DNA of 64,000 nucleotides from an uncultured Methanosarcinales archaeon (GCA_964396095.1 CAYNCK010000024.1:8079-72078); one strand, 5' to 3'; positions 3,589 to 64,000 are shown, counted from the first letter of the stretch. Numbers and translations: made by a program. The notes: generated by a model not told the origin, from the sequence alone.

Positions 3589-3642
3589 CCTGAAAATCTT
3601 TTTTACCGCAACCTTTTTAAACCGTTTATTCTTCCAAAGTAC

Positions 3643-3756
3643 TGGACGGCCATAGGGGCTTGGTTCCATCCGTTCCCATCTCGAACACGGCAATTAAGCA
3701 AGCCTCCGTTTCTGTGTGTACTGCACTTACGTGTGGGAAATCAGAAAAGCTGTCCA
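3643..3756 (+). rRNA. rrf: 5S ribosomal RNA (archaeal type), not linked to 16S/23S in this window
   Basis: GGACGGCCATAGGGGC...CCGTTCCCATCTCGAACACGGCAATTAAGC...GTACTGCACTTACGTGTGGGAAA...GCTGTCC. Conserved loop C and loop E-like segments are present. The terminal helix GGACGGC/GCTGTCC pairs with one G-U. A T-rich tract follows. The ends are approximate (+/- 3 nt). Confidence 0.9.
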
Positions 3757-3763
3757 CCTTTTC

Positions 3764-7298: not shown

Positions 7299-8224
7299 AA
7301 AAAATTCTAGTGACAGGGGGGGCTGGCTTTATCGGAAGCCATCTGTGTGAATTTCTTTTGGAAAAAGGGTACAAAGTCATTGCAATGGACAATCTCATTA
7401 CAGGCAGCATAAAAAACATTGAGCGCCTCAGAAGCAGCGGTAATTTTGAATTTATACATCAGGATGTAAGCAAGCACATTGTTGTCAATGATGGCTTGGA
7501 TTTTGTGCTGCATTTTGCCTCTCCTGCAAGCCCGATTGACTACCAGAAAATCCCTATACAAACCTTGAAGGTGGGGAGCCTCGGCACTCACAATACTCTT
7601 GGACTTGCTCTTGCAAAAAATGCAAAATACCTTCTTGCATCAACATCGGAAGTTTATGGCGATCCATTGGTAAATCCCCAGCCTGAAAGCTACTGGGGCA
7701 ATGTCAATCCGATTGGACTGAGGGGATGTTATGATGAAGCTAAGAGATTTTCAGAGGCACTAACAATGGCTTACCATAGGATTCATGGGCTCGACACAAA
7801 AATAGTTAGAATATTCAATACTTACGGCCCGAGGATGAGAAAAGACGATGGAAGGGTTGTCCCGAATTTCATAGAGCAGGCCTTGAAAAATCTTCCAATG
7901 ACTGTTTATGGAGACGGAAATCAGACAAGAAGCTTCTGCTATGTAAGCGACTTAGTTGAAGGAATTTACAGGCTTATGCTTTCGGATACTAACGAGCCTG
8001 TCAATATTGGCAATCCGGAGGAAAGAACAATTCTTGAATTTGCAGAGTTAATAAAAAAACTTACCAACACAAAAAGCAAAATAGTTTTTGAGCCACTGCC
8101 TGTTGATGATCCGCATGTAAGGTGCCCAGACATATCAAGGGCAAAAAAAGAGCTTAAGTGGAATGCAGGGGTTGATATCGAAGAAGGGCTGAAAAAGACG
8201 ATTGAATGGTTTAAGTCAAATTAA
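7295..8224 (+). CDS. uxs: UDP-glucuronate decarboxylase (UDP-xylose synthase)
   Basis: [23 protein letters not shown], the YDEAKR catalytic Tyr/Lys motif and [11 protein letters not shown]; 309 aa. ATGA overlap with the upstream gene. Confidence 0.85.
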
Positions 8225-10618: not shown

Positions 10619-12035
10619 TCCTGAAAATCCTCCTTACGATATCATAATCCTTGCCGTCAAATGCCCTTAGGGCAAGCAAAACCGCGAAATAAACAAGAGC
10701 TGAAAATATAATTGTTAAAACCAATCCGAAGATTGAAAGCCGGATAAATGCATACATGGCTAGTGAGGCTATGGCGGGCTTTGCAAGCAGCCTTGTGAAA
10801 TTGAAAAAATAAAAGCTCTTTGAAACATACCAGAAATACAGGACAATCAAAAGTATTTCTGTTATAAAGGTAGCCCACGCTGCGCCGACATAGCCGAATT
10901 TTGGAATCAGCGCAATATTGAGCCCTATATTGAAGACTGCAGTTATTCCCTGCCCAAGCATCCTTTTTCCCTGCTGGTCTATTGATGAAAGTACAGTTCC
11001 AAGAAGGAAGTTTATGAATTTTATGAACAAATACCATCCAACAATCTGCAGCACAATTATTGCCTCAAAGTATGATTTTCCATATAAAAAATAAACTATC
11101 CTTGACGCAAGCACGTACGTTCCTACTGAGATCGGAAGCCCGATGATGTAAAGGTATTTGAAAGACCTCTCATAAATCAGCCTTAATTCGGATTTCTTTT
11201 CCTTGAAGTATCTTGACATTACCGGATATATTGCATTTGTGTATACAGTTGGTATGAACTGAATTGCAAGCGCGATGTTGTAAGCCACGCTGAATATTGC
11301 AACCTGTGAGTCATTTGTCATCTTTGAAAGGATAACGCTGCTTATGTTGAAATAAATGCTGCCGAATACTAGGGCCAATCCAAATGGCAGTGATTTTTTG
11401 AGCAGGCTTTTCATGAATTGAATGTCAATTCTGATTTTTAATTTTATGAATTTTTTTGATGCAACTGCAAAAGCCGCAATTACGGCAATGAATTCTGTTG
11501 CAACAAAAGCATAGCTGAATGCAATAACGCCATAACCGTTGAATAAAAGGTAGAGGCTTGATGCAGCCAGCAATGTCATCTTGAATATTTTTAGGCACGA
11601 ATCGTAAAACATCATCTCAAAAGCCCTGAATATAGAGAAGAAAAGCTCGGTGAAAGTTAGCAGTATAGTGTATGCCCAAATTATATAGACAATCTGCCTT
11701 GTATCCTGAGGGAAGTTGAGAAGATTTAATGCGGCAAATATTGCCAAAAATGTCAAGATTGACAGCAGAATTTTTGCAAAAAACGCATTGACAAAATATT
11801 TTGATGCAGACTTCTTGTCCCGTGCAATTTCCCTTATCAGAAGGGTGTTTATTCCCATGTCAGCAAGGAATATTGCAATCAGGGAAAGCGACAGCGCAAA
11901 GCTGAATTTGCCGAAATGATCCTTGCTCATAAGCCTCGCAGCATACAGCATGACAATGAATTGCAGCAGCCTTGACACTATCTCTGATGCGCCCGAATAG
12001 AGGCTGTTTTTGTATATCCTTCTCGCCGTTCCCAT
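10593..12035 (-). CDS. Polysaccharide/oligosaccharide flippase (Wzx-like, MOP superfamily)
   Basis: About 12-14 hydrophobic helices across ~480 aa, with the typical N-terminus (LYSGASEIVSRLLQFIVMLYAARLM). ATG at 12035 is preferred over TTG at 12047. Confidence 0.8.
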   Translation of the reverse strand: MGTARRIYKNSLYSGASEIVSRLLQFIVMLYAARLMSKDHFGKFSFALSLSLIAIFLADMGINTLLIREIARDKKSASKYFVNAFFAKILLSILTFLAIFAALNLLNFPQDTRQIVYIIWAYTILLTFTELFFSIFRAFEMMFYDSCLKIFKMTLLAASSLYLLFNGYGVIAFSYAFVATEFIAVIAAFAVASKKFIKLKIRIDIQFMKSLLKKSLPFGLALVFGSIYFNISSVILSKMTNDSQVAIFSVAYNIALAIQFIPTVYTNAIYPVMSRYFKEKKSELRLIYERSFKYLYIIGLPISVGTYVLASRIVYFLYGKSYFEAIIVLQIVGWYLFIKFINFLLGTVLSSIDQQGKRMLGQGITAVFNIGLNIALIPKFGYVGAAWATFITEILLIVLYFWYVSKSFYFFNFTRLLAKPAIASLAMYAFIRLSIFGLVLTIIFSALVYFAVLLALRAFDGKDYDIVRRIFRNEKIQANL

Positions 12036-16946: not shown

Positions 16947-18491
16947 TCAAACAGAACTCTCAACAGCGGCCTTTTCTCCAATATTCTTATTCAGCTTATT
17001 GCTGTATATTAAGTTATTCTTGATCTTCCTCACAGCAGACCAGACTTTTATACCGGCTTTTTTCATTATTCCTCTTGTCGGCTTTGGAAGCCATGCCCAG
17101 TAAGCGAGTGTTCCCAAAACATTGCCGAATTCCTTTCTTGCAATGTACTTTATGACAAATTTTTCGCCAATTTCTAGAGCTTTTTTTCTGTCTTCCTGTG
17201 AGAATTCCGCAGTTTCAATTATTGGCTCTCCGTCCCAGACGCCGAGGTTATTCTGGTATTCCTCTTCCGTCATTGTAAACCAGCCGTTCTTTTTTGCAAT
17301 GTCATAAAATTCAGTCCCGATATAAGGCAAGGCAGAATAAAACCTTACCTCTTCCAGTGGAAGCTCCTGCGCAAGCTTTAGCGTCTGCTTGAAATTTTCC
17401 ATGTTGTCTCCAGGCAGTCCAATTATGAAAAATCCGCCTGCAGGCAGCCCAGCTTCATGCGCAAGCTTTGCAGCCCTTTTGATTTGCTCAACTGTGGCCC
17501 CTTTTTTCATCTTGTTCAAAACATCCTGCACTCCTGACTCAATTCCAAAAGCAATGTAAATGCACCCTGCCTTTTTCATCTTCTGGAACAATTCAAGATC
17601 AGTCTTGTCAACCCTGATTCCGTTTCTCAAGTCCCACTCTATTTTCAAGCCTTTTTCCACAATAAGGTCGCATATTTTCTTGACGCGATTCATGTCAAAA
17701 TTAAATACATCATCATTGAATGCAAATCTTCTGTACCCGTAATTCTTATACCAGTGCTCAAGCTCGTTTGCAACATTTTCAGGAGACCTTGCCCGAAAAG
17801 TTCTTCCCATTGTGAGAAATATTGAGCAGAAAATGCAGCGATGAGGGCAGCCCCTTGATGTGACGATAGGTAGTTTCTTGTCCATGTATTCCTTGAGTTC
17901 GAATAAGTCAAACGCAGGCCTTGGAAGCTCGTCAAGGTTGTCAAGGAAAGGCCTTTCAGCATTAAGCACAAATTCATTTCCTTTCTTGAATCCTATGCCA
18001 AGAATATTCTCCAATGGCATACCTTCCAGAATTTCCTTCAGGCCCATTTCCCCTTCCCTTAAAACAGCAATGTCTGCGCCGGATTGTTTAAGCACTTCTT
18101 TTATTGTCGCAGAAGTGTGGGGTCCTCCGATTAAGACCTTAATATTGCTGCCGAGTTTTTTTACTTCCTTGATAAGCACGTAAACATCGTCATGCCCCTG
18201 CGTCACGGTTGTAGTTGCAAAAAAATCCGGCCTGAATTTTTTAACATAGTCAATGACATACTTGTCGTCATATCCAAATCTCATGTCAATTATTTTTGTT
18301 TCATATCCGCACAAGTCCCTTGAAACTCCTGCCAAAATTGCAATTCCGTAATGGGGGGAAGTTGGCTTGCCCATGATGCCGACAAGTCCGGGAATCACAA
18401 AAAGAATCTTCCCTTTGATTGAGGGAGCATGCAGCAAAACAGACTGTTCAGTAGAAACTTTATGCATAGGCGCATTATTGTTATCTTCCAT
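16947..18491 (-). CDS. B12-binding-domain radical SAM protein (class B rSAM), paralog 1
   Basis: N-terminal Rossmann-like region (KILFVIPGLVG ... VLIGGPHTS), the cluster motif TSRGCPHRCIFCS, then GIESG and FIIGLPGD. Confidence 0.85.
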   Translation of the reverse strand: MEDNNNAPMHKVSTEQSVLLHAPSIKGKILFVIPGLVGIMGKPTSPHYGIAILAGVSRDLCGYETKIIDMRFGYDDKYVIDYVKKFRPDFFATTTVTQGHDDVYVLIKEVKKLGSNIKVLIGGPHTSATIKEVLKQSGADIAVLREGEMGLKEILEGMPLENILGIGFKKGNEFVLNAERPFLDNLDELPRPAFDLFELKEYMDKKLPIVTSRGCPHRCIFCSIFLTMGRTFRARSPENVANELEHWYKNYGYRRFAFNDDVFNFDMNRVKKICDLIVEKGLKIEWDLRNGIRVDKTDLELFQKMKKAGCIYIAFGIESGVQDVLNKMKKGATVEQIKRAAKLAHEAGLPAGGFFIIGLPGDNMENFKQTLKLAQELPLEEVRFYSALPYIGTEFYDIAKKNGWFTMTEEEYQNNLGVWDGEPIIETAEFSQEDRKKALEIGEKFVIKYIARKEFGNVLGTLAYWAWLPKPTRGIMKKAGIKVWSAVRKIKNNLIYSNKLNKNIGEKAAVESSV

Positions 18492-26986: not shown

Positions 26987-28492
26987 TTAAGTTGAAGATT
27001 TTGCTGTACCGCCAATAAGCCTTTTTAGGCTTTTTGAGAGGAACAATGAAAAGCTTCTCTCTGTCTTTGTCTCCTGCTTTGAAGTCAAAATATTCCTCAT
27101 CATCCTTAGCTGCTTGAACGGATGGTATAAGCTCTTGTAAAAATAGAATGTCTTGTAGACTCCTGCAATCCTTTGGTTGGCAATCTCCCTGTCAGGATAC
27201 CAGTCAGGAAGATCATTTACGTTTGCGCCTGCATCCTGCTCCATCAACGCTGGATCTATGTCAGCAAAATATTTCTTTGTTATTGGAGTGTTGGGATATG
27301 GTAGCATCGGTGCAGGGCAGATTTCATCAAGGCCTGCCTTTGCCAGCCTCTTAACATAATTTGTGGTAAGTGTGTAATCCTCTTCTGTCTCCGCCTTTGC
27401 GAGTCCAGTTATGATAAAGCAGCCTGTCTTTATTCCAATCTTGTGGCATATATTGACGAGCTTTACTATAAGCTCCAAGTCAATGAACTTGCTGTAAACC
27501 TCTTTCAAAAGCCTTTGCGAGCCCGATTCAGGCGCGAAAATCAGATATTTGCAGCCGGCATCCTTGAATAATTGCAGATTTTCCTCGTTCATCTTTTCCG
27601 GCCTAACTCCGCTTGGAGTTGTCCATGTTATCTTAAGTCCCCTATTTATTATCTCTTTGCAGATTTCAACAGCCCTGCCCATGTTAAGCGTGAAATTGTC
27701 GTCGTTTATCTCAAAATGAGTAATTCCATGTTTTGTTATGCATTCCTCAATCTCATCTACAAAATTCATCGGGCTTCTTGCTCTCCATGTTCTCTGCCAG
27801 AAAACAATGCTTGCGCAGTAAGAGCATGTCAAGGGGCATCCTCTCGAAGAAGTGATTGAAGTGAATTTGTTTACAACAGGCCCGTGAGAAAATTTCCTTT
27901 TCCAGTAGTTCTCCAGGGGTATCAAGTCCCTTGCCGGGAATGGAATTTCATCAAGATTCTGCACAAATTTTGTTTTTTTATTTACCTTGATTTCCTTGTT
28001 GGAATCCATAAACGACAGCCCGTCCAATTGCGAGTAATCTTTTCCGGTTGATAGGCATTCAATTAAATCATAGCAAGTCGCTTCGCCTTCTCCAAGAACA
28101 GCAAAATTTGCGCCATGCTCAAGATAAAAATCAGGATGCATTGTTGGGTCATTTCCTCCGACAATAATTGCGGTATCCGGAAATTTTTCCCTTATCCTTT
28201 TCAGGATTTCAACATACATTCTTTGCTGGGTTGAGAAATTGGTTGCAACAGTTATGTAATCCGCCCTTGGGTTTATCTTAGAGACTATCTGATCAAAATT
28301 CAGCCCAATATAGATTATATCGCCCCACTTATTCTTCTGGAATATGCCTTCTCCAACAGCATCAATAACCTGGACATCAAAGCTTTTTCTTAAATAACCT
28401 GCAAGATATGCAACGCCCATCGGAACAGCCAAAGAAACTGTAGGTTTCTCTATTAATGGGGGGTTTATAATGGTAACATTTACATTATTCAT
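26987..28492 (-). CDS. B12-binding-domain radical SAM protein, paralog 2
   Basis: N-terminal Rossmann-like region (IIVGGNDPT), SSRGCPLTCSYCAS, APESG and FIITGL. Confidence 0.85.
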   Translation of the reverse strand: MNNVNVTIINPPLIEKPTVSLAVPMGVAYLAGYLRKSFDVQVIDAVGEGIFQKNKWGDIIYIGLNFDQIVSKINPRADYITVATNFSTQQRMYVEILKRIREKFPDTAIIVGGNDPTMHPDFYLEHGANFAVLGEGEATCYDLIECLSTGKDYSQLDGLSFMDSNKEIKVNKKTKFVQNLDEIPFPARDLIPLENYWKRKFSHGPVVNKFTSITSSRGCPLTCSYCASIVFWQRTWRARSPMNFVDEIEECITKHGITHFEINDDNFTLNMGRAVEICKEIINRGLKITWTTPSGVRPEKMNEENLQLFKDAGCKYLIFAPESGSQRLLKEVYSKFIDLELIVKLVNICHKIGIKTGCFIITGLAKAETEEDYTLTTNYVKRLAKAGLDEICPAPMLPYPNTPITKKYFADIDPALMEQDAGANVNDLPDWYPDREIANQRIAGVYKTFYFYKSLYHPFKQLRMMRNILTSKQETKTERSFSLFLSKSLKRLIGGTAKSST

Positions 28493-28649: not shown

Positions 28650-28680
28650 TATTTAAAACACAAGAGAGGTGCTTTTCAAG

Positions 28681-30096
28681 ATGAAAGTTTTACTTATAAC
28701 CCCACCATATCCAAAAGACAGGATTTTTAGGAAATCAATGAAGAATCTTGGAGCTGTATTGCCTCCTTTAGGTATAGCTTACATAGCTTCAATGCTTGAA
28801 AAAGATGGCCATAATGTGAAGATTATCGACGGCCCTGCATGGGCAACTATTCTTGGCTATGATTTTACTGATCTGGAAAGGGACATAAAGGAATTTGCCC
28901 CTGATGTTGTAGGAATTTCAGCGTCAACCTCTCAAATAGACCATGCAAAAAGGGCAATTTCAATCGCAAAATATGTAAACAAGAAATGCGTTGTCATACT
29001 TGGAGGCACCCTTATAAGCGCTGACCCAAAGGCTTTGCTGAAATTCGAGCAGGTTGATTTTGGAGTCTACGGGGAAGCAGACTTGACCTTTTCTGAAATT
29101 TTGAAAACTGTTGAAGCCAAAAAGTCTGTTGAAGGCATGGAAGGGGTAATCTGGAGAGAAAATGAAGATGTAAGATTCCTAAAGCCAAAGGTAATTACAG
29201 AATTAGACCAGATTCCAATGCCTGCAAGGCATCTTTTAAGGATGGAAATATATAGGCCATCTCCTGCAAATTACAGAAGATTGCCAGCCACAACAATAAT
29301 GACATCAAGAGGCTGCCCTTACCAATGCATTTTCTGCTCAAGGCCGACAGAAGGCACTGCATTTCGGGCGCATTCTGCTGAAAGGGTTGTTGCTGAAATA
29401 GAGCAGCTCACAACAAAATACGGCATAAAAGACCTGCAGATTTTTGACGACACATTCAGCTTGATTCCAAGCAGAGTTGAAAGAATTTGCAAATTGCTTA
29501 TTGAAAAAAAGATTGACATAAGCTGGAACTGCATGACCAGAGTTGACAAGATAAATCCCGAATTGCTTGCATTGATGAAAAAAGCAGGCTGCTACGAAAT
29601 TGGCTTTGGAATCGAGTCAGGCTCTGACAGGATATTGCAATTCATCAAGAAATCAACAACAACAGAGCTGATAAGGAGGGGAGTCAAAATGACAAAGGAA
29701 GCTGGAATTGATGTCAGGGGATTTTTCATGATTGGCTTTCCTACAGAGACAAGACAAGAGATTCTTCAGACAATCAGCTTTGCCAAAGAGCTTGATGTTG
29801 ATGTTGCTCAGTTCATGGTTTCAACTCCATTCCCCGGAACTGAAATGTGGGAGATAGCAAAGCAGAATGGAAATATAAATGATGATGACTGGAACAGCTT
29901 CACGTTTTACGCTCCAGACAAGATGCCATTCTCTTCAAATTTATTGAGCGACAATGAACTGCTTTCACTTTACAAGAAAGCCTACAAGTCATATTACTTA
30001 AGGCCAAAGTTCATGCTTAGGCAGCTGATGAAAATGAAATCTCCAGCAGATATAAGCAGGTACTGGCTTGCAGCAAAAGGAGTCCTTGGATGGTAG
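28681..30096 (+). CDS. B12-binding-domain radical SAM protein, paralog 3
   Basis: MKVLLITPPYP, ILGGTLIS, TSRGCPYQCIFCS, GIESG and FMIGFPTE. ATG at 28681, with GAGAGGTG ~12 nt upstream, is preferred over GTG at 28669. Confidence 0.85.
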   Translation: MKVLLITPPYPKDRIFRKSMKNLGAVLPPLGIAYIASMLEKDGHNVKIIDGPAWATILGYDFTDLERDIKEFAPDVVGISASTSQIDHAKRAISIAKYVNKKCVVILGGTLISADPKALLKFEQVDFGVYGEADLTFSEILKTVEAKKSVEGMEGVIWRENEDVRFLKPKVITELDQIPMPARHLLRMEIYRPSPANYRRLPATTIMTSRGCPYQCIFCSRPTEGTAFRAHSAERVVAEIEQLTTKYGIKDLQIFDDTFSLIPSRVERICKLLIEKKIDISWNCMTRVDKINPELLALMKKAGCYEIGFGIESGSDRILQFIKKSTTTELIRRGVKMTKEAGIDVRGFFMIGFPTETRQEILQTISFAKELDVDVAQFMVSTPFPGTEMWEIAKQNGNINDDDWNSFTFYAPDKMPFSSNLLSDNELLSLYKKAYKSYYLRPKFMLRQLMKMKSPADISRYWLAAKGVLGW

Positions 30097-36507: not shown

Positions 36508-37410
36508 TCAAATTGATTTTAAAATTCCTTCCTTAAAGCCCGTGAACACGAAATTCAGGTCTTTTTTAATTTCTGAATTGTCAAGTTTTTCCCTCAGAGG
36601 AAAATACCTTAACTGCTGCGTTGTCAGGCTCGGGTTTGGAACAATTATCTCGTAAAAAGCAACAGCAGGCTTCAGCAGAAGCATCGGAACATGAATTTTT
36701 ATTACTTTTTTATCCATGGCATCAGCAATCATATCAATAATTTCATTTAGCGTAATCGCTTCATCACAGCAAGCATTGTAGGTTTTTTTCTTTTTTAAAA
36801 CAAGGCATTTAATTATTATTTCGACAATATCGTTCACAAAAACCGGCTGGAAAATATAATCTCCTGTGCCTATTACGGGAATAATTCTTGATTTTTTTAC
36901 CATTCCCGCAAGCTCGATGATGAATTTGTTGTCGCCTTTGCCGTAAATAACTGTCGGCCTTAATATTGTATAATTGATTTCGGATTTTTTTATTTCAATC
37001 TCAGCATCATGCTTGCTTTTGCCATACTCGGTCATTATTTTCCTTCCTGCCAAATCACTGCTTATGAAAATGAAATTATTGATTTTATTTTTTTTGGCAA
37101 TTCTCAGCAGGTTTTGCGTGGATTTCACATTAGAGTCAAGATAATCCTTGAAAGAATTTGATTTTATTATTCCTGCCAGGTGAATGATGCTAGAAATTTT
37201 TATTTTTTCAAGCGATTTTTCCAGCATATTGAAGTCAGTTAGCTGGCAAATAATTACTTTTATTTTATTGACTTTAAGATATTTTATGAATTTTTTGTCT
37301 GAAGATTCCCTCAGGATGCAGCATAGCTCATATTTTTCCCCGACAAGCTTTGAAATTAAATTCCTGCCAACAAAGCCGGAAGCCCCAGTGACTAAAATCA
37401 TGGTATTCAC
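36508..37410 (-). CDS. NAD-dependent epimerase/dehydratase (extended SDR)
   Basis: MILVTGASGFVGRNL and YGKSKHDAE (YxxxK). 4-nt overlap with the upstream rSAM gene. Confidence 0.8.
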   Translation of the reverse strand: MNTMILVTGASGFVGRNLISKLVGEKYELCCILRESSDKKFIKYLKVNKIKVIICQLTDFNMLEKSLEKIKISSIIHLAGIIKSNSFKDYLDSNVKSTQNLLRIAKKNKINNFIFISSDLAGRKIMTEYGKSKHDAEIEIKKSEINYTILRPTVIYGKGDNKFIIELAGMVKKSRIIPVIGTGDYIFQPVFVNDIVEIIIKCLVLKKKKTYNACCDEAITLNEIIDMIADAMDKKVIKIHVPMLLLKPAVAFYEIIVPNPSLTTQQLRYFPLREKLDNSEIKKDLNFVFTGFKEGILKSI

Positions 37411-38855
37411 AATTGCTTTATCAAAACACCGACATCCTTTAAAAATCTCCCGTTCAGAACTTCTCTGATCAAAAATCTCGGGCTGAAATAAAACCTGTTG
37501 AATGCGCTGGTGACTTCCTTCTCAAGATATTCCTGGGTTATTTCGTCAGATACCTGCATTGCGGCGCTGTATCCCCCAAGCATGTCAAGAGTCTCTGACT
37601 TAAGCCATTTGTTTTCTTTTGCCATGTCATAAAGCTGCGTGCCGGGAAAAGGGGTTGCAATCTTGTATTCCACCTGGCTCGGCAGCAATTTAAGGCTGAA
37701 ATCAATTGTTTCCTTGATTGTCTGCTTTGTCGACCCGGGTAATCCAAGTATGAAAAAGCACGTTGTTCTTATTCTGTTTTTGTGCAGCAGCATTACTGTC
37801 TCAAGAATCTTGCCAGTATCCAATGGCTTCCTGTTGATAAGCTTCAGTATTTCCGGATGTATATCCTCTACGCCAAGATTGACACATTCGCATCCCGCTT
37901 TTGCAAGAAGCTCGATGGTTTCTTTTTTCAGCAATTCTGGCCTAGTCTCGAATGCAAACCCTACTTTTAGCTTGCTTTCAATCAAAAGATGGCACAAATC
38001 CTCAACTCTTTTCTGGTTCAGCGAAAACAAAGGATCCCTGAAGAAAAATCCTTTTGCGCCAAATTTTTCATAATCATACTTCATCTCATCAAAAATATTT
38101 TTTGCATCCCTTGCTCGCCACTTCAGCCCCTGGTTTGCAGGATATGGGCAGTACCCGCATCCGTAAGGGCAGCCTCTTGAAGCCTGGATTGTAACTAACG
38201 GTGTTTTTGAAACCATGGGAAAGTATCTGTACTTTTTGTATGGAAACAGGCTCCAGTCAGGGAAAGGCAATTCTTCAAGCTGCTCTTTCTCCAGCCTTCC
38301 TGACTGCTCTGTCTTTACAACTTCGCCTTTTTCTACATAAGCAATGTTTGAAATATTTTTTAGATTTTCACCGTTGCAGATATTTGCAATTGAAGTTTCA
38401 ACCTCTCCGAGAATTCCGATGTCAAAATTCGGCATGAGAAGATTTGGCCTTTCATTTATCATTTCCCCTTCAACAATTATCTTGACATTTTTACAGCTGT
38501 CCTTTATTTGCTTTGCAACAATATCCCTTTCGAATATAAAGCAGCTTGCAGAGCATGCCATAACAGCATAATCCGGCTTGAAGGCAGTTATTTTTGGCAT
38601 TATATCGTCTAATTTCAAGTCCTCTGTTGCGGCATCTATCACCAAAAGCTCGAATCCTTTCTGCTTTAGTATTGTTGCTGCATAAACAAGCTGTAATACA
38701 GGAATATGCACATAAGAATTCTTCATCTTGGTAACCATTGTAGAAAGAATGTTGGAGCTGAGGCTATTCTTGACACCCATCCCGCCCATCAAGTCCCTGT
38801 TGATATGGTTTTCATCAGGGCTCGGAGGGTTTAAAACAAGCACTTTAGCTGCCAT
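37407..38855 (-). CDS. B12-binding-domain radical SAM protein, paralog 4
   Basis: AAKVLVLNPPSP, an N-terminal Rossmann-like region, ASRGCPYGCGYCPYP, GVEDI and FILGLPGS. ATG at 38855 is preferred over 38894. Confidence 0.85.
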   Translation of the reverse strand: MAAKVLVLNPPSPDENHINRDLMGGMGVKNSLSSNILSTMVTKMKNSYVHIPVLQLVYAATILKQKGFELLVIDAATEDLKLDDIMPKITAFKPDYAVMACSASCFIFERDIVAKQIKDSCKNVKIIVEGEMINERPNLLMPNFDIGILGEVETSIANICNGENLKNISNIAYVEKGEVVKTEQSGRLEKEQLEELPFPDWSLFPYKKYRYFPMVSKTPLVTIQASRGCPYGCGYCPYPANQGLKWRARDAKNIFDEMKYDYEKFGAKGFFFRDPLFSLNQKRVEDLCHLLIESKLKVGFAFETRPELLKKETIELLAKAGCECVNLGVEDIHPEILKLINRKPLDTGKILETVMLLHKNRIRTTCFFILGLPGSTKQTIKETIDFSLKLLPSQVEYKIATPFPGTQLYDMAKENKWLKSETLDMLGGYSAAMQVSDEITQEYLEKEVTSAFNRFYFSPRFLIREVLNGRFLKDVGVLIKQL

Positions 38856-38899
38856 TTTGTTTTGAAATAATTGAAAGAGAGATACACACAACATCTGCC

Positions 38900-53713: not shown

Positions 53714-55258
53714 ATGAATGAGGGAAAAGAACAGCTGGATTTCGTATTTATTTCTACAGCTTCTGATATACAGTGTTACAGCATCAGGAGAGTGTCTGCG
53801 TATTTGAAAAAGCACGGGTTCAAAACTAAAATGGTATTTTTGCCGCAGCCTTTTTCCAAGCGGTATTCCGATCAAGTGCTTGAGCAAGTTGTGGACATAT
53901 CAAAGGATGCAAAACTAATTGGCATCTCTCTTATGAGCAACTACTGGCACAATGCGGTTCAGCTGATTAAATCTCTCAGGAGCAAATCCGATTCTTTAAT
54001 CATAGGCGGGGGCCCTCACCCAAGCACAAATCCCGACCAATGCCTGGAGGAAGTCGATATGATATGTGTTGGGGAAGGGGATGACACTTTGCTTGAGCTT
54101 ATGAAGAGGATTAAAGCCGGCATTACAGACTACTCAGGAATACCCAACCTGCAGTATAAGCAGAACGGCCAGATTATAAAAAATACGCAGGAGCTTTTTG
54201 AAAAATCAGACGAAATTCCGATTCCTGATTATGACCTTGAAGATCATTTTGTTCTTTTTGAAAACAAGATACAGCCAATGACTTACGACTTGTTCAGGTG
54301 TTTTCACGGCCACGATTACATGACGATTTTTGCTTTTGGCTGCCCTTATACATGCAGCTACTGCATTCATAATATATACAATAAAAGGTTTAAGTTTAGG
54401 TTCAGGAAGAGGCCGGTTAAAAATGTGATTGAAGAGCTTAAGTATGTCAAGCAAAAATTCCCTTTCATCAACAGGCTAAGGATTGAAGATGACACTTTCT
54501 TCTTTTACAGCAAGGAGGAAATGGAATATTTCAGGGATGAGTTCAAGAAATATATCAATATTCCGATTTATGTCTGCGGCGGCCAGCCAATGGTGATTAA
54601 AGAGGAATTGATGAAGCCGATGGTTGAGGCAGGCATGAACAGGATAAGGATGGGCATAGAGACTGGTGCAGAAAGAATACAAGCCATGTACCAAAGAGTC
54701 ATATCAAACAAGAAAATACTTGAAGCCTGTAAAGTAATAAACAAATTCAAGGAAGTAACAGTGACATACGATTTTATAACAGATAATCCTTGGGAGACGG
54801 AAGAGGAAACTTTGCATACACTTAAGTTTATTCTTGAGATTCCGCATCCTTACAGCTTAAGCGTTTTTTCACTTACATTTTACCCAAACACGGACATACA
54901 CCTTCAGGCTATTGCCGATGGCATAGTGAAGAAAGATGAGGATACCCTTGCAAAGCATTATTGGGGTGTCAAGAATAATTACCTGAATCTGATGTACTAT
55001 CTTTGTGATGTCAGGTGGATTCCAACAAGATTCAAGGCATTTTTGCTGAACGACAATGTGAGGAATTCCAAATTCAAGCCCATCATTATGGCTTTCCTAA
55101 GATTAAACAGGATTGTGAAGAACAGGAGCTCCTTGTTCAAGTACTTATGGAGTTATGTTACGGAATTGGATTACACAAGAATTAAATTCTCCATAAAAAA
55201 ATATTATAATGACTACAAGTACTATTATTCATTAAAAAGCAATGTGCTTGGAAACTAG
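53714..55258 (+). CDS. B12-binding-domain radical SAM protein, paralog 5
   Basis: N-terminal Rossmann-like region (LIIGGGPHPS ... ICVGEGD), FAFGCPYTCSYCIHN and GIETG. Confidence 0.8.
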   Translation: MNEGKEQLDFVFISTASDIQCYSIRRVSAYLKKHGFKTKMVFLPQPFSKRYSDQVLEQVVDISKDAKLIGISLMSNYWHNAVQLIKSLRSKSDSLIIGGGPHPSTNPDQCLEEVDMICVGEGDDTLLELMKRIKAGITDYSGIPNLQYKQNGQIIKNTQELFEKSDEIPIPDYDLEDHFVLFENKIQPMTYDLFRCFHGHDYMTIFAFGCPYTCSYCIHNIYNKRFKFRFRKRPVKNVIEELKYVKQKFPFINRLRIEDDTFFFYSKEEMEYFRDEFKKYINIPIYVCGGQPMVIKEELMKPMVEAGMNRIRMGIETGAERIQAMYQRVISNKKILEACKVINKFKEVTVTYDFITDNPWETEEETLHTLKFILEIPHPYSLSVFSLTFYPNTDIHLQAIADGIVKKDEDTLAKHYWGVKNNYLNLMYYLCDVRWIPTRFKAFLLNDNVRNSKFKPIIMAFLRLNRIVKNRSSLFKYLWSYVTELDYTRIKFSIKKYYNDYKYYYSLKSNVLGN

Positions 55259-56624: not shown

Positions 56625-57758
56625 TTAAATATTTAACCAATAAAAAATCAAGAGTAATAAGAGTAGTAACCAAATTAAAGGTCTAAAAAATAGTTTATTC
56701 AATCTATCATTTTTATTTCTCAAATCAAAAACAAACAATCCAATTAAAAATGCACCCATACTAACAAGGTGCAAAATGGTAAATTCATTAACTGGCAGTC
56801 CAAAGCTTAAAAATCCTAATATTAATGTTGAAATGAAAAATAAAGAATAGTCATAAAAAATAAGGGATATACTGGATTTAGGCTGATAAGCTACAAAAAA
56901 ACTTATAAAAACTATTAATATTAAAATGGAACCAATCCAAAATGGTTTTAATGAAACTTCCCTTACCAAGTCCAATTTTATATGAAAGTATTGATCTTTG
57001 CTCATATCAATCTTATAAATTGCCGTTTTACCAGAATTAACACTTTCTTGAGCTTGTTGTAGACTATTAAATGGAGGTTTATCTCTTGTACTTTCAACTT
57101 TAATATTTTTAATAGCAAAGTAAGGAGGTGCATTAATAAATAATTCATATTCGGAGTTTTGACTTGATTGTAAGAATAGTTCTATTGAATAAGAATCAAT
57201 AGGAAAATATTTTGGTGGTCTAGTAAAATTTACATAGTCACCTTCAAGAACAAACTCTTGATGAAGATCTATTGGAGTTTTGTTTATTAAATAATCAGGA
57301 ATATTAAAATCAATCTTTTGTCTTAGAAAAGGTCCACTAGTGGTTTCTCTGGAGAGGGATGCTGTATTTATTTTACTATAAAAAAAAGTACTCCAAGATG
57401 TTAAAATTACACCATTTAGAGTTACAGAAACTGACTTAATAAAATTATTACCTTTAACTATTATTCCATCTATAAATCTAGGATCGGAATTATTGGCACG
57501 ATTTGTTACCTGAGCTATACTTGATTCAATTGGAATAAAATTAGTCTGTTCAAAGATTTTTAGGTATTTTTTTACAAAGAAATCATTGGGAATTTCAATA
57601 TTTATTTTAGTAAAATTTAGACTATTTGGTGGCATAGTAAATGTTGCAGTGTGTGCGACTTCGTATGTTTCTTTATTAGTCCTATAAATATACAATACAG
57701 AAACAATAAACAAAATTAAATATATAAGCCCGAGAAGGTATTTATATTTTATTTTCAT
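56625..57758 (-). CDS. Membrane protein of unknown function (N-terminal TM, ~250-aa external domain, C-terminal TM bundle)
   Basis: Hydrophobic segments at both ends; no recognisable motif. Confidence 0.4.
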   Translation of the reverse strand: MKIKYKYLLGLIYLILFIVSVLYIYRTNKETYEVAHTATFTMPPNSLNFTKINIEIPNDFFVKKYLKIFEQTNFIPIESSIAQVTNRANNSDPRFIDGIIVKGNNFIKSVSVTLNGVILTSWSTFFYSKINTASLSRETTSGPFLRQKIDFNIPDYLINKTPIDLHQEFVLEGDYVNFTRPPKYFPIDSYSIELFLQSSQNSEYELFINAPPYFAIKNIKVESTRDKPPFNSLQQAQESVNSGKTAIYKIDMSKDQYFHIKLDLVREVSLKPFWIGSILILIVFISFFVAYQPKSSISLIFYDYSLFFISTLILGFLSFGLPVNEFTILHLVSMGAFLIGLFVFDLRNKNDRLNKLFFRPLIWLLLLLLLIFYWLNI

Positions 57759-59363: not shown

Positions 59364-60521
59364 TTATTTTTTAGGAATTACCCCATTTTTTCCAAGATAA
59401 TCATAAATTAAATCCGCTGCAAGCTCATGCCCTTTTTCATTCCAGTGCCCGTCAATATTGAAATAAAAAGTGTTGTTGATGTTTTTCTGCCGGAAATAAG
59501 GAAGCAGGTCAAGAAATCCAATTTTATTTTCAGCTGCAAATTTTGCAGCCAGTTTTTGAATCTTGTCAGGCTCCAGATTTTTTTCATCAATATTGTTTTG
59601 CTTTGCAAATTCAGCCAGCTTATTTTTGTCAACCTGTTCCCTGTTCGGAATAATTACCATAAGCAGGGGAATCTTGTTTTCATCGGCAACACTTTTTATT
59701 TCATCTATTAAAAGGAAAGCTTTTTTGATTGCCCCGCCCGCTTCAGCAGTTGTGTTTTTGTAGAGCATATCAGCAATCGTAACGTCCCTTTTCACATTAT
59801 CACTGCTGCTTATCTTGGATTTTGAAAGGAATAATCTTATTAGAAAATTATTTTTTGAGTTTTCAATAATCACTGTTTGTGTTAAGGCGCACAAATGCGA
59901 ATATCTGCTGCAATACAGCAAAAAGCTTTTCGCCCATGATATTTTCACAGGAATATTCTCAACAAGCTTTTCGTTTTCCACTGAAACAAGGGGAGTTATA
60001 GCATTTTCAGCAACATCTCTTGAAGAAAAGTCAAGCAAAATCAAGTCAGGATTATATTTCAAGCCCTCGGTTCTCAAATAAAATAATTCCTGCGCCGTGC
60101 TGTAGCCGCCGACAGCCATGTTTATGACTTCATATTTTCCTTTTAATTCATTGTTGAGCTTTTTTTCTAGAATATTTTCATAAGTCTGGTTTAGCTGCAC
60201 CTGCAGTGCCTGCGAAAAAGAAGAGCCTATAAGCAATATCCTGAAAGTTCCTTTAGGCTTTTCATAGCTGTACTCGTAATCCCTTAACCCATGCGAGTTG
60301 AACTTTATTGTATTTGAAAATTCCTGCCTGTGGTAATTTGTTTCAAAATTCGGAATGTGCTTAAACATCAAAGTGCTGTCAAACTCAGTATAGTTGAGGT
60401 TCTGCGGGAAAAATATTCTTATGATTATTTCAGCAAGAAAAAGCATGATAATCACTACAATAAGCAACACAAGCAGGTTCTGTAAAATTGCCTTGAGTCT
60501 GCTGGCTTTTTTCTTTGGCAT
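59364..60521 (-). CDS. Membrane-anchored SGNH-like protein of the AlgJ/AlgX/DltD type (DxHW motif)
   Basis: N-terminal TM helix, FRILLIGSSFSQ (Ser block), and NIDGHWNEKGHELAA, which resembles the D-x-H-W signature of AlgJ/AlgX-type O-acyltransferases. Confidence 0.6.
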   Translation of the reverse strand: MPKKKASRLKAILQNLLVLLIVVIIMLFLAEIIIRIFFPQNLNYTEFDSTLMFKHIPNFETNYHRQEFSNTIKFNSHGLRDYEYSYEKPKGTFRILLIGSSFSQALQVQLNQTYENILEKKLNNELKGKYEVINMAVGGYSTAQELFYLRTEGLKYNPDLILLDFSSRDVAENAITPLVSVENEKLVENIPVKISWAKSFLLYCSRYSHLCALTQTVIIENSKNNFLIRLFLSKSKISSSDNVKRDVTIADMLYKNTTAEAGGAIKKAFLLIDEIKSVADENKIPLLMVIIPNREQVDKNKLAEFAKQNNIDEKNLEPDKIQKLAAKFAAENKIGFLDLLPYFRQKNINNTFYFNIDGHWNEKGHELAADLIYDYLGKNGVIPKK

Positions 60522-60586
60522 AATCTAAGTTTATTATATTCGGTTATAAAGTTTTCTTAAAAAATCAATAAATATCAGCTATAGCT

Positions 60587-60763
60587 GTGCCGAAAGAAAG
60601 ATTTAACATAATTAAAGATGATACAGACGACAATGCAATATTAGAATGTGCAATAGCTTGAAATGTAGATTGTATTGTTAGTAATGATAAGCATTTATTA
60701 AAGCTTAAAAAATTTCGGAATATAACTATATTAACGCCAGATGATTTTATAAATATTTATAGG
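60587..60763 (+). pseudogene. Decayed C-terminal fragment of a PIN-domain (PIN_3-like) toxin gene
   Basis: My translation: VPKERFNIIKDDTDDNAILECAIA*NVDCIVSNDKHLLKLKKFRNITILTPDDFINIYR. It matches the C-terminal ...DpdDn.fLecAia..AdyiVsgDkhLL.lk.f.gi.Iltp.eF pattern. The N-terminal ~70 aa are absent, and there is an in-frame TGA at 60659-60661. Confidence 0.6.
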
Positions 60764-60915
60764 TGCTTGCTTCTTAGCATAAGTATAATCGCTTGTGGTA
60801 TGTAAAGTTCTTCCTGCTCCTATTAAAAGAATGTTTTGTGAACTTAATTACTCATTTTTAGTCTATGCTTAATAAATAACTTTATAAATGAATATGCGGC
60901 TCTGCAGATTTAAAA

Positions 60916-61941
60916 ATGGCAAAGAATAAGCCGAAAAATATTCTTAAAAATATAATTTTGCTAGTTATAGTTCTCTTGGTTTTTCTCGCTTTACTTGAAA
61001 TTATTTTGAGGATAACCTACCCTATTTATTCAAACTATAACACTGAAATGTGGAGATATTCAGTTCTTTTGAAAAGAGCCAGCCCCAATCCAAATGTTTC
61101 CCATGAGCATATACCAAACACCGAAGCATTCCTGTACGGAGTTGATGTAAAAATAAACTCTTATGGATTCAGGGACAATGAATATTCATTGAAAAAGCAG
61201 GACAACACTTATAGGATTCTAATTTTAGGCGATTCATTCACTCTTGGGTGGGGCGTGCCAATTGATGATGCCTATTCAAAAGCCCTTGAGAAAATGCTGA
61301 ATGAAAACATAAAAGGGAAAAAATTTGAAGTAATCAATACAGCTTTGGGCAATTACAACACTCAGATGGAATACGAGCTTTTGAAGGAAAAAGGAATCCA
61401 ATTCCAGCCTGATATGGTTATAGTCGGCTATTATCCCAACGACCCTGAACTGACTGTTAAATTCGACGACAAGGGAATTTCAACATTCGTGAAAAGGCAC
61501 AGCTACATTTACGTGTTTTTCTGGGACAGGATAACCAAGCTGCAGACAAGAATTCAATTGGCAGGCAACAATGGCCCTTACACCGGCTATGTTCATAACC
61601 TGTATAAAGGCGATTTTGAAGGCAGAAAAATAATGGAAAGCTCACTGAATGGAATTATCGATTTAAGCAAAAAAAATAATGCAACTCCTGTCGTTGCTGT
61701 TCTTCCTCAGTTTTTCGGCAAATTTGAGGATTATGAGTTCAAGGAAATCTATCCTGCCGTGAGCAACATCACAACAGGAAAGAATGTCTTAGCCATTGAC
61801 ATGCTGCCGTATTTCAAAAATCATGAGGTAAGGGACGTGATTGTTTCATTTGAAGATGCTCACCCAAACAAGCTCGGCCACAGCATAATAGCAAAGGCAA
61901 TTTACGACAACATTTACGGGATTGTATCAAAAAAGAAATAG
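60916..61941 (+). CDS. Membrane-anchored SGNH/GDSL hydrolase-family protein
   Basis: N-terminal TM helix, YRILILGDSFTLGWG (block I GDS), and EDAHPNKLGH (block V DxxH). Confidence 0.75.
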   Translation: MAKNKPKNILKNIILLVIVLLVFLALLEIILRITYPIYSNYNTEMWRYSVLLKRASPNPNVSHEHIPNTEAFLYGVDVKINSYGFRDNEYSLKKQDNTYRILILGDSFTLGWGVPIDDAYSKALEKMLNENIKGKKFEVINTALGNYNTQMEYELLKEKGIQFQPDMVIVGYYPNDPELTVKFDDKGISTFVKRHSYIYVFFWDRITKLQTRIQLAGNNGPYTGYVHNLYKGDFEGRKIMESSLNGIIDLSKKNNATPVVAVLPQFFGKFEDYEFKEIYPAVSNITTGKNVLAIDMLPYFKNHEVRDVIVSFEDAHPNKLGHSIIAKAIYDNIYGIVSKKK

Positions 61942-62039
61942 CAAGGTTGCCTGTTTTTATTAATATAATTAATAAATCTATAAACATTTCAAAACACAAA
62001 GCAAAATATAAAAACACATCTTATTTTCATCTCTTAAAA

Positions 62040-62180
62040 ATGGAAAAAAGCCAAACTTTCCTTAAAAGGAACTGGAAGATGATTTTGATTATAGCGGTAA
62101 TAGTGATACTTCTTGTATTGTTCATTATCTTAAGCGGCAAAAATGTTGTATCTCCTGACTTGAGGTATTTTCCTTCATAG
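62040..62180 (+). CDS. 46-aa single-pass membrane protein directly upstream of the MBOAT gene
   Basis: MEKSQTFLKRNWKMILIIAVIVILLVLFIILSGKNVVSPDLRYFPS. An internal ATG of track ORF 61947-62180 is preferred. Its position is analogous to DltX. Confidence 0.4.
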   Translation: MEKSQTFLKRNWKMILIIAVIVILLVLFIILSGKNVVSPDLRYFPS

Positions 62181-62188
62181 GTGTTTAA

Positions 62189-63403
62189 ATGCTTTTACTC
62201 CAAGAGCCTTCAATTTTTAGGTCAGTTCTTGAGCCTTATACAAAGCTTTTATTCGGGGATTATTTCAACACAGGGCTTCTGCTGGTATTTGGGATTTTGT
62301 TTGCTTTAATTCTTTACACAATCCCAAAAAAATTCAAGTTCAAGGCAATTTTAACAGCAAGCATCATTTTTGCATTAATCTCGTCAACATTTGCAAATTT
62401 TATTTTGTTCATCATTATTGTAGTGATCCTTTTTTTCTGCTCAAATTATAATTTCAGGCTAAAAAATATTTTATTCTGGCTTACGGAGGCATTTTTGCTG
62501 ATATCAACAATGCTGGTTTTCAGGATTTTTAAATATCATTCCGCTTTCTATTCATTTGCAGCTTATTACACCATGTACCGCTCAATCCACTATTTTGTTG
62601 ACGTGAAGCAGGGCTCTTTGAAGAAAGTTGGAATTATTGATTACATAAGCTACTTGTTTTTCTTCCCGTCATTCTCCCATGGGCCTGTTGAAAGGTTTGA
62701 AAATTTAAATTTAGAGAATGTAAATAAAATCCATGTAGTATTTGGGTTTAAAAGAATCCTGGTTGGAATTGTAAAATACGTATTATTGCTTTATGTTTTT
62801 TCTAAAATACCTATAATTCCGTTCTCATTCAGTAATTTCTTGCAATGGCTCGTCTATACCGCTTACGGGAATGCCATTAAGCTTTACGTGCTTCTGTCAG
62901 GTGACATAGATATAGTAATTGGAATATCATCGTTGATGGGGTTCAAAATAAGTGAGAACTTCCCTAAATTCCCCTACATTCAGGAGACCCTGACAAAATT
63001 CTGGCAGAACTGGCAGGCAACGATTGTCAGCTGGCTCACAGCCTACGTTTACTTTCCTCTTTGCAGGAACAGGAAATATGTTTACCTGAAGACGATGATA
63101 ATAATTATGATAATAGGCTGGGCGCATTTGTTTTATTATTTTCAGGATTTCCCATCCACAGAATACATTTTGTATTACACTTTGTGGGGAATATTCTTAG
63201 GAGGCACATTTGCATTGTCAAAAGTTATTGAAAAAAAGAAAGCAGATTCAAGAAAATCAGTCGAGGCAAAGCACCCTTCAATTGCAAAAATCCTATACGC
63301 TGACAATATTTTCACAAAATCATTAAACACCTTCATTACCTTCAACATAATTGCAATTGGATGGCTTTCACCATTGTACATATTGCTGGCAAGCTTACGA
63401 TGA
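62189..63403 (+). CDS. MBOAT-family membrane O-acyltransferase (DltB/AlgI-like), with Gln at the canonical His position
   Basis: FFFPSFSHGPVERF aligns with FFPqliAGPIvR. LSGDIDIVIG aligns with FSGYSDmaIG. ENFPKFPYIQETLTKFWQNWQATIVSWLTAYVYFPL aligns with ENFn.PY.a.si.eFWRRWHISLStWlRDYlYiPL. Confidence 0.75.
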   Translation: MLLLQEPSIFRSVLEPYTKLLFGDYFNTGLLLVFGILFALILYTIPKKFKFKAILTASIIFALISSTFANFILFIIIVVILFFCSNYNFRLKNILFWLTEAFLLISTMLVFRIFKYHSAFYSFAAYYTMYRSIHYFVDVKQGSLKKVGIIDYISYLFFFPSFSHGPVERFENLNLENVNKIHVVFGFKRILVGIVKYVLLLYVFSKIPIIPFSFSNFLQWLVYTAYGNAIKLYVLLSGDIDIVIGISSLMGFKISENFPKFPYIQETLTKFWQNWQATIVSWLTAYVYFPLCRNRKYVYLKTMIIIMIIGWAHLFYYFQDFPSTEYILYYTLWGIFLGGTFALSKVIEKKKADSRKSVEAKHPSIAKILYADNIFTKSLNTFITFNIIAIGWLSPLYILLASLR

Positions 63404-63744
63404 TACTCAACATAGGGATAGACATAGAGAAAATTTCAAGGTTCAAAGGCAAAAGCAAGAGTCTGCTGGCCAGGATTCTTACTGGAAGGGAATTGAAATC
63501 CCTGAAAAATAAAAATTCACAAACAATTGCGGGAATTTTCTGCGCAAAGGAAGCAATTATCAAGGCATGCAGCATAATAGAAAAAATAAATTTCAATGAT
63601 ATTGAAATTTTTCATAAAAAGAATGGCATGCCTTTTGTCAAAATAAAAAATTTAAAGAAGATAAGCTCAAAAGATTTAAAAATAAGCATCTCGCATTCAA
63701 AGGATTATGCAGTCGCAGCTGCAGTTCTGCTAAAGGTGATTTAA
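63400..63744 (+). CDS. acpS: Holo-[acyl-carrier-protein] synthase (4'-phosphopantetheinyl transferase)
   Basis: MILNIGIDIEKISRF, FCAKEAIIKA and ISISHSKDYAVAAAVL. ATG at 63400 forms an ATGA overlap with the MBOAT stop. Confidence 0.8.
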   Translation: MILNIGIDIEKISRFKGKSKSLLARILTGRELKSLKNKNSQTIAGIFCAKEAIIKACSIIEKINFNDIEIFHKKNGMPFVKIKNLKKISSKDLKISISHSKDYAVAAAVLLKVI

Positions 63745-63972
63745 ATTAACGAAAAATTAAGGGGAATATGCACAAAAGTCTTCAACATTGCCCCAAATGA
63801 AGTATCTTCTGATATTTCAAAAGCAAACACTCCTGAATGGGATTCCCTAAGCCACCTGATGCTGTTGACCGAAATTGAAAAAGAGTTCAAAATTAAGTTC
63901 ACTGCAAGCGAGACAATCAAAATTAAATCAGTTGAAGACATTGAAGCAGTTCTAAAAGGAAAAGGGTTATAA
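63745..63972 (+). CDS. Acyl/peptidyl carrier protein (DltC/ACP-like) with no canonical start codon
   Basis: My translation: INEKLRGICTKVFNIAPNEVSSDISKANTPEWDSLSHLMLLTEIEKEFKIKFTASETIKIKSVEDIEAVLKGKGL. The DSL Ser sits at the usual ~35-aa position. It is in the same frame as acpS and starts right after the acpS TAA. The first codons are ATT AAC GAA, and there is no in-frame ATG, GTG or TTG before the DSL motif. Confidence 0.65.
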   Translation: MNEKLRGICTKVFNIAPNEVSSDISKANTPEWDSLSHLMLLTEIEKEFKIKFTASETIKIKSVEDIEAVLKGKGL

Positions 63973-64000
63973 ATTCTGGGATGTTCTTAGATATAGTGCA

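Follow-up and report, generated by a model that had tools for sequence, protein, structure and literature searches.

What does a set of genes laid out like a bacterial dlt operon do in archaeal DNA, where teichoic acid cannot be assumed as the acceptor? Acylation by pairs of MBOAT and SGNH proteins through an acyl-tyrosine shuttle is already known, with the Dlt system of Firmicutes as its carrier-dependent case, and to our knowledge DltB is the sole MBOAT that uses a carrier-bound donor. The question is raised by a 64,000-nucleotide stretch of DNA, hereafter the window, which is deposited as that of an uncultured archaeon (GCA_964396095.1, CAYNCK010000024.1:8079-72078). At its 3' edge, an original prediction made from the sequence alone had described a Dlt-like acylation module. 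Following this up, we arrive at a reading in which the locus encodes a carrier-dependent acyl relay from an MBOAT to an SGNH protein in a DPANN archaeon of the Woesearchaeota type; to this scheme as a whole we assign a probability of roughly 0.6.

All six open reading frames (ORFs) that had been predicted were recovered at their coordinates in an ORF listing, and five of them match family models. The first, on the minus strand, encodes an SGNH protein (SGNH1, 59364-60521; PF16822 ALGX, 41.6 bits; PF13472, 38.6 bits). On the plus strand, it is followed by the genes for a second SGNH protein (SGNH2, 60916-61941; PF13472, 36.2 bits), a 46-residue microprotein with one transmembrane segment and no family match (62040-62180), a 404-residue DltB-like MBOAT (62189-63403; PF03062, 32.5 bits; 84 bits over the full length with the DltB equivalog model TIGR04091, whose cutoff is 375), an AcpS-type phosphopantetheinyl transferase (63400-63744; PF01648, 59.9 bits; TIGR00516, 70.5 bits) and a carrier protein of 75 codons with Ser34 in the motif EWDSL (63745-63972). 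The carrier clears the PP-binding model PF00550 narrowly (21.8 bits, gathering score 20.8), and the two family matches of AcpS bear out the notion of a built-in phosphopantetheinyl transferase. AcpS is coupled to the MBOAT, as its ATG at 63400, where the alignment with the AcpS family profile also begins, overlaps the MBOAT stop codon as ATGA. The proposed Dlt-like logic is thereby recovered, with a small transmembrane protein, a DltB-type MBOAT, a carrier, an SGNH protein and a phosphopantetheinyl transferase in a single locus. The gene set recurred in nine distinct loci with 56-78% MBOAT identity, and because of this recurrence we do not regard the arrangement as a product of chance. Gene content, family assignments, synteny, the conservation of key residues and the type of the ligase described below are direct observations.

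The loading enzyme was found by comparison with related loci. In five relatives of the window (L005/L008, L006/L007, L009, L011 and L017), a gene for a PF00501 AMP-binding protein of 551-559 residues lies directly 3' of the carrier gene. These loci are otherwise ordered as the window, with SGNH1 on the minus strand and, on the plus strand, SGNH2 (not in L011), microprotein, MBOAT, AcpS and carrier; AcpS occurs in eight of the nine loci, in varying positions, and is missing from L006/L007. A search with the L005 ligase yielded P0069, a protein of 552 residues with 72% identity to the query. Its gene lies on one NCBI contig, 77,597 bp in length, and NCBI records the MBOAT, epimerase and SGNH1 of the window on a contig of equal length. 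An adenylating ligase after the carrier, which the original prediction had suspected in an ORF starting at ATG 63981, thus has orthologues in five relatives and a candidate on a contig of equal size, but it is FAAL-like rather than a DltA. The suspected start codon did not hold: the ORF from ATG 63981 reads MFLDIV while P0069 begins with MNTLVSVLEEN, and the L005 DNA that aligns with window positions 63973-64000 is intergenic. We therefore consider 63981 to be probably no start at all and these last nucleotides (plus strand) to be a spacer, with the ligase gene most likely beginning a few bases past position 64000.

Judged by its best-matching models and structures, the ligase resembles fatty acyl-AMP ligases (FAALs) and not DltA. 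P0069 scores 350 bits against the NCBIfam fatty acyl-AMP ligase model PRK09192 (cutoff 600), and its other best NCBIfam matches are likewise to models of FAAL and FadD32 type. Among PDB structures, it reaches 226 bits with 3kxw (deposited as 'Saframycin Mx1 synthetase B', which we take to be a Legionella FAAL) and 193 bits with 3pbk (deposited as 'Fatty Acyl-Adenylate Ligase'), compared to 60 bits with DltA (3e7w). The L005 and L006 orthologues behave likewise, with 344-350 bits for FAAL models; across P0069 and these orthologues, the FAAL structure scores 226-274 bits and DltA 60-62 bits. Moreover, P0069 aligns with 3kxw without gaps across residues 308-363, whereas alignments with acyl-CoA synthetases, with luciferases and with 4-coumarate ligases show a break or a shift of about 23-33 residues in the same region. 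This stretch would fit the extra segment of FAAL-type enzymes, its exact boundaries being approximate. FAAL and carrier genes are neighbours in five archaeal and two bacterial loci, and the enzyme is proposed to transfer its acyl group to the carrier rather than to CoA.

A further group of loci (L002-L004, L010 and L016) retains microprotein, MBOAT and AcpS, and has the FAAL and its carrier replaced by four genes, encoding an FkbH-domain protein (TIGR01686, 315 bits), an SDR/FabG-like reductase, a MaoC-type dehydratase and another carrier, which is 34% identical to that of the window (cassettes at L002 6522-9729, L010 440-3600 and L016 9584-12794). L002-L004 have an SGNH1-like gene and L010 part of one; L016 instead encodes a 380-residue protein with GGS and DWAH motifs, which we read as SGNH-like. 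FkbH domains load unusual units onto acyl carrier proteins (ACPs) (PMC4552970, where work on glyceryl-S-ACP is cited), and dehydratase-ketoreductase (DH-KR) enzymes convert glyceryl-ACP to lactyl-ACP in the biosynthesis of FR901464 and lankacidin (PMC4765723). In a rough neighbour-joining tree, the MBOATs of these FkbH-type loci form one clade nested among those of the FAAL-type loci, so the loader was swapped on a conserved core. This swap is the strongest comparative argument for a carrier-fed MBOAT and fits a general export route for carrier-bound acyl groups. Tentatively, and well below the confidence that we place in the relay itself, it might be extended to a modular system of acyl export in DPANN archaea, in which a single core of microprotein, MBOAT and SGNH protein is served by exchangeable loaders, FAAL for fatty or organic acyl groups or FkbH-KR-DH for lactyl or glyceryl groups, and yields esterified surface glycans.

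The microprotein is encoded directly upstream of the MBOAT in all nine distinct loci. Its C-terminus reads [SN]P[DG][LV]xYFP in each of them, usually followed by T, S or K, and the tyrosine of this motif is invariant and, in eight of the nine, fourth from the C-terminus; the window protein ends in LRYFPS, which makes this residue Tyr43. In DltX and PatA, the acylated tyrosine of the motif FxYxxF likewise is the fourth residue from the C-terminus (PMC12148441). By analogy, we propose that Tyr43 serves as the acyl-shuttle residue in a DltX-like role. As the N-terminus is basic, the positive-inside rule leads us to infer an N-in/C-out topology, which would place the tyrosine outside the cytoplasm. 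The prediction of a DltX thus finds support in the position upstream of the MBOAT and in the placement of the tyrosine, although, from its sequence, the microprotein is an analogue of DltX and no member of the DltX family.

The MBOAT is DltB-like, yet no DltB equivalog. A profile built from 19 archaeal MBOATs matched only DltB (6bug and 8jem; E about 1e-18) when compared with all PDB sequences, with residues 14-392 aligned to residues 11-400, and DltB was also the best Foldseek match of the AlphaFold2 model (TM-score 0.62), followed by PORCN and HHAT. The protein has the length of DltB and lacks the two extra C-terminal helices on which PatA-type MBOATs bear their fused shuttle motif (PMC12148441). 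His313, in the motif GWxH, is invariant in the 19 archaeal sequences and is probably the catalytic histidine, equivalent to His336 of DltB. At another position, the second conserved histidine of bacterial MBOATs (DltB His289, motif WH) corresponds to an invariant glutamine in this clade (Gln276, NWQ), and an additional invariant histidine (His164, SFSHGP) has no counterpart in DltB. The clade is small, with about 22 close homologues of 53-100% identity, beyond which only ordinary bacterial MBOATs of at most 29% identity follow; among 1.84 billion representatives, it comprises seven clusters at E<=1e-30. Its nearest bacterial relatives, P0023 and P0026, have AlgX, DHHW or unannotated proteins as neighbours. 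They gave no intermediate form, as these are ordinary MBOAT loci without a carrier.

Among 45 homologues of SGNH1, the catalytic residues Ser101 and His359 do not vary. The AlphaFold2 model of the protein (pLDDT 93.6) shows an SGNH core and an N-terminal transmembrane helix at residues 5-37. In a profile comparison with the PDB, the C-terminal half matches AlgX, AlgJ and PatB1; its Foldseek matches are those of a generic SGNH esterase, and PatB comes at rank 28. Eight of the nine loci have an SGNH1-like gene, complete or in part. By analogy with DltD and PatB, we propose that SGNH1 acts as the final acyltransferase. SGNH2 has GDS and DAH motifs and matches the NCBIfam model of LA_2486-type esterases with 49 bits over its full length; it occurs in the FAAL-type loci, L011 excepted. 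Both proteins are proposed to be membrane-anchored, with SGNH2 in an accessory role. The intergenic region between the two genes (60587-60763, plus strand) holds the remnant of a PIN-domain gene (PF13470 PIN_3, 27.8 bits), of which only the C-terminal part is left, interrupted by an in-frame stop codon.

The carrier finds its best NCBIfam matches in generic ACP models (29-30 bits), and the DltC model is not among its matches. The serine of its DSL motif is conserved across the compared carriers, and the gene is under purifying selection (ratio of nonsynonymous to synonymous differences, pN/pS, 0.20-0.31); its first 23 codons are constrained as well, with pN 0.17 and pS 0.77 in comparison to L005. 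The predicted 75-residue carrier is recovered as an ORF with the narrow PP-binding match given above, but not in its start, since the codon at 63745 is ATT and not canonical. AcpS and the carrier share one reading frame, and all that lies between them is the TAA that stops AcpS (63742-63744); the sequence GGTGA is found 4 nt upstream of the ATT. At the corresponding position, L009 and L017 read GTG AGC AAA ATY AAY (10704-10715 and 7786-7797) and L011 reads GTG ATT CAC ATC GAC (2116-2127); the window (63736-63747) and L005 (7559-7570) read GTG ATT TAA ATT AAY, with a stop at the third codon. By this comparison, a canonical start codon was lost from the carrier gene, which suggests that the protein is made from the ATT, by reinitiation or by read-through.

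Put together, these parts suggest the following relay. AcpS would convert the 75-residue carrier to its holo form, as its family and the gene coupling imply, and the FAAL-type enzyme would adenylate a carboxylic acid, which may be a fatty acid or another organic acid but no amino acid, and load it onto the adjacent carrier. At the cytoplasmic face, the MBOAT would then take the acyl group from the carrier and, in analogy to DltB and DltX, pass it to Tyr43 of the microprotein, near the C-terminal end outside the cytoplasm. From the acyl-tyrosine, the group would move to Ser101 of membrane-anchored SGNH1, which would finally esterify a glycan of the cell surface that the genes of the surrounding island make. 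More speculatively, SGNH2 may be an accessory protein, either a second transferase or relay member or an editing esterase. For any particular acyl group, our confidence is much lower than for the scheme as a whole.

Several observations weigh against this relay. In the MBOAT, the TIGR04091 score is far under the cutoff of the model, the AlphaFold2 model is of moderate confidence only (pLDDT 73.7), the hidden Markov model alignment is gapped and ambiguous around the presumed catalytic His313, and the position of DltB His289 is taken by glutamine. The microprotein has no match to DltX in Pfam at E<=0.1, its motif [LV]xYFP[TSK] differs from the FxYxxF of DltX, and that of L016 stops at YFP, with the tyrosine third from the end. 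The description of SGNH1 as AlgJ-DltD-like proved apt for its AlgJ half, given the matches to AlgX, AlgJ and PatB1, but not for DltD: at the same Pfam threshold, the DltD family is not among the matches of the SGNH proteins, and DltD appears neither in the PDB profile comparison of SGNH1 at E<=1 nor among its top 50 Foldseek matches. The carrier has no canonical in-frame start codon upstream of its attachment site, Ser34. The placement of P0069 on the contig of the window derives from the equal size of 77,597 bp and from synteny, and FAAL-type enzymes vary in their substrates, so that no particular chain length follows from the type of the enzyme. Lastly, every chemical step is inferred, and so are the topology in the membrane, the nature of the acyl group and its acceptor.

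The proteins of the locus could also be arranged differently, into a pathway of lipid scavenging or remodelling. Host lipids would be cleaved outside the cell by the SGNH/GDSL proteins in the role of lipases, the fatty acids set free would be activated by FAAL and carrier, and the target of the MBOAT would be a membrane lipid or glycolipid instead of a glycan polymer. This would agree with the best models of SGNH2, which are of esterase and lysophospholipase types, with the fatty acids that FAALs typically activate, and with the presumed host dependence of DPANN archaea, some of which have bacterial fatty-acid genes (PMC8204110). We nevertheless consider it improbable, as the FkbH-type sister loci would yield a C3 hydroxyacyl group that is useless for building lipids, and as a microprotein with a shuttle tyrosine implies transfer outward. 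Furthermore, AlgX, AlgJ and PatB1, which the C-terminal half of SGNH1 matches, are polysaccharide acyltransferases, and every one of the loci is embedded among genes for glycan biosynthesis.

A second alternative leaves the MBOAT in place and changes its donor. Like PatA and AlgI, it might use acyl-CoA, while carrier, AcpS and ligase perform a separate acylation in the cytoplasm, such as the N-acylation of an amino sugar. Here one can point to the nearest bacterial relatives of the MBOAT, which have no carrier, and to a metagenome-assembled genome of the Opitutae (L015, 8001-11253), where the gene after a related FAAL-carrier pair encodes a protein with a WcbI domain and not an MBOAT. The genomic association, however, is too consistent for this to be more than a slim chance: carrier and loader stand beside microprotein and MBOAT in nine of nine loci and AcpS in eight of nine, and the association is kept although the loading cassette is of two unrelated kinds and the genes occur in several orders. 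The overlap of the MBOAT stop with the AcpS start, the resemblance of the MBOAT to DltB and the existence of a bacterial triad of FAAL, carrier and MBOAT (L014, see below) speak for the carrier as donor, too.

Aminoacylation, that is, a true Dlt analogue that attaches D-alanine or some other amino acid to a polymer of the surface, is suggested by the overall architecture of the locus and by DltB as the closest solved MBOAT structure. It is very unlikely because the ligase is FAAL-like, by the margin of its scores and by its gap-free alignment through the segment at 308-363; D-alanylation in particular was set aside on this ground. In addition, the carrier matches generic ACP models and not DltC, and the sister cassette of FkbH, KR and DH would yield a hydroxyacyl-ACP, not an aminoacyl-ACP (PMC4765723). 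Where the original prediction had left the choice between acylation and aminoacylation, the former is thus retained, with an organic or fatty acyl group as the more likely cargo. That the contig is bacterial or mis-binned and its archaeal context an artefact, as one might suspect from the lack of a ribosomal protein or 16S marker in the window, the bacterial relatives of all its parts and the mostly chloroflexotal origin of FAAL homologues of about 45% identity (Chloroflexota), is highly improbable in view of its relatives and promoters.

With respect to the relatives, all four related loci in the genome collection come from metagenome-assembled genomes labelled Candidatus Woesearchaeota or Nanoarchaeia, and one MBOAT homologue as well as several SGNH1 homologues carry Nanoarchaeota or Woesearchaeota source names (three such homologues enter the case against a bacterial origin). 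With respect to the promoters, 16 of the 53 window genes have a TATA-like hexamer whose first base falls between -36 and -27 relative to the start codon, compared to two to six genes in other 10-nt bins. These 16 genes, which have no Shine-Dalgarno (SD) sequences, include those for SGNH1, SGNH2 and the microprotein, with boxes at 60544-60551, 60881-60888 and 62004-62014, respectively; an example of such a box is CTTTATAA. The microprotein mRNA is accordingly likely to be leaderless. Genes internal to operons, such as that for the MBOAT, instead have an SD-like GGTG about 10 nt upstream of their start (at -10 for the MBOAT). The pattern fits an archaeal leaderless architecture and, together with the relatives, supports the archaeal origin that had been assumed from the start.

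The glycan island, too, is recovered as predicted and takes up the whole window, with nucleotide-sugar enzymes, glycosyltransferases of the GT2, GT4 and GT9 families, several PMT_2-type GT-C enzymes and a Wzx-like flippase. Interspersed with the glycosyltransferases and PMT_2-type enzymes are five paralogous genes for B12-binding radical SAM proteins (16947-18491, 26987-28492, 28669-30096, 37407-38894 and 53714-55258), an unusually large number for a sugar cluster. Between the genes for a UDP-glucose dehydrogenase and a NUDIX protein, an ORF on the minus strand (56625-57758) encodes 377 residues without a Pfam match and with a hydrophobic C-terminal third. The sole Rfam match in the window is a lone 5S rRNA (3642-3758, plus strand; RF00001, 69 bits), which has no 16S or 23S rRNA nearby and is flanked by an NFACT-like gene and a nucleotidyl transferase gene; no tRNA was found in the window, and neither search yielded a direct marker of taxonomy.

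How does the proposed archaeal relay compare with known systems? With Dlt (DltA, DltB, DltC, DltD and DltX), it shares a carrier-bound donor, a DltB-type MBOAT of about 400 residues to which no shuttle is fused, a distinct microprotein with a single membrane pass and a tyrosine fourth from its extracytoplasmic end, a membrane-anchored partner of SGNH fold and the organization in a single locus. It differs from Dlt in its FAAL-type ligase, its generic ACP, the microprotein motif [LV]xYFPx instead of FxYxxF, the replacement of DltB His289 by glutamine, its built-in phosphopantetheinyl transferase, its two SGNH proteins outside the DltD family and its archaeal host, for which, as noted at the outset, the Dlt acceptor cannot be presumed. 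The PatA/PatB and AlgI/AlgJ/AlgX systems likewise combine an MBOAT with an SGNH-fold transferase that acts on an extracytoplasmic glycan, with an acyl-tyrosine shuttle proposed, and it is AlgX, AlgJ and PatB1 that the C-terminal half of SGNH1 resembles; by contrast, PatA- and AlgI-type systems use acetyl-CoA as donor, have the shuttle fused to the MBOAT and employ neither carrier nor ligase nor phosphopantetheinyl transferase (PMC12148441).

A closer bacterial parallel is found on a bacterial-looking metagenome contig (L014, 5084-9715), where a protein with a GDS motif, a FAAL, a PP-binding carrier and an MBOAT are encoded in a row. Its ligase, P0087, is the closest non-archaeal relative of the archaeal ligases (47% identity to that of L005, 45% to P0069). 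Unlike the window, this locus has neither microprotein nor AcpS, and its MBOAT of 460 residues ends in FLYQRY, a fused FxYxx[FY] shuttle, and is 27% identical over about half its length. As L014 joins a FAAL and a carrier with an MBOAT of the fused-shuttle type, it suggests that carrier-fed MBOATs exist outside Dlt in bacteria as well. Archaeal MBOATs with a fused motif were reportedly described in 2023, in an abstract by Schultz and colleagues. The FkbH-type sister loci, on the other hand, recall the lactyl-ACP starter modules of the polyketide synthases (PKSs) for FR901464 and lankacidin, in that L002, L010 and L016 have discrete genes for FkbH, an SDR-type KR, a MaoC-type DH and an ACP; they differ in that no PKS is present and the carrier adjoins the MBOAT relay. 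The window itself does not contain this cassette.

In 2025, MBOAT/SGNH pathways other than Dlt were said to have neither a carrier protein nor a DltX-like microprotein (PMC12148441). Unlike this statement, the archaeal loci described here have both, together with a different loading enzyme. Full-text literature searches returned no paper that joins these components, although an earlier bioinformatic mention may exist. A carrier-dependent version with a split microprotein, a loader of FAAL or FkbH type and a built-in phosphopantetheinyl transferase thus appears to be undescribed in DPANN archaea. With one microprotein, one MBOAT, one carrier, one phosphopantetheinyl transferase and one ligase, the system is compact and should be amenable to reconstitution in vitro.

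If the proposed relay is true, carrier-fed acylation by MBOATs would be no peculiarity of Firmicutes, but would reach beyond D-alanine and beyond bacteria. For the uncultured DPANN archaea that encode it, the module predicts an ester modification of surface glycans, possibly with a lipid. In the case of fatty acylation, this modification could serve to anchor the glycan by its lipid or aid the attachment of these archaea to the membrane of their host.

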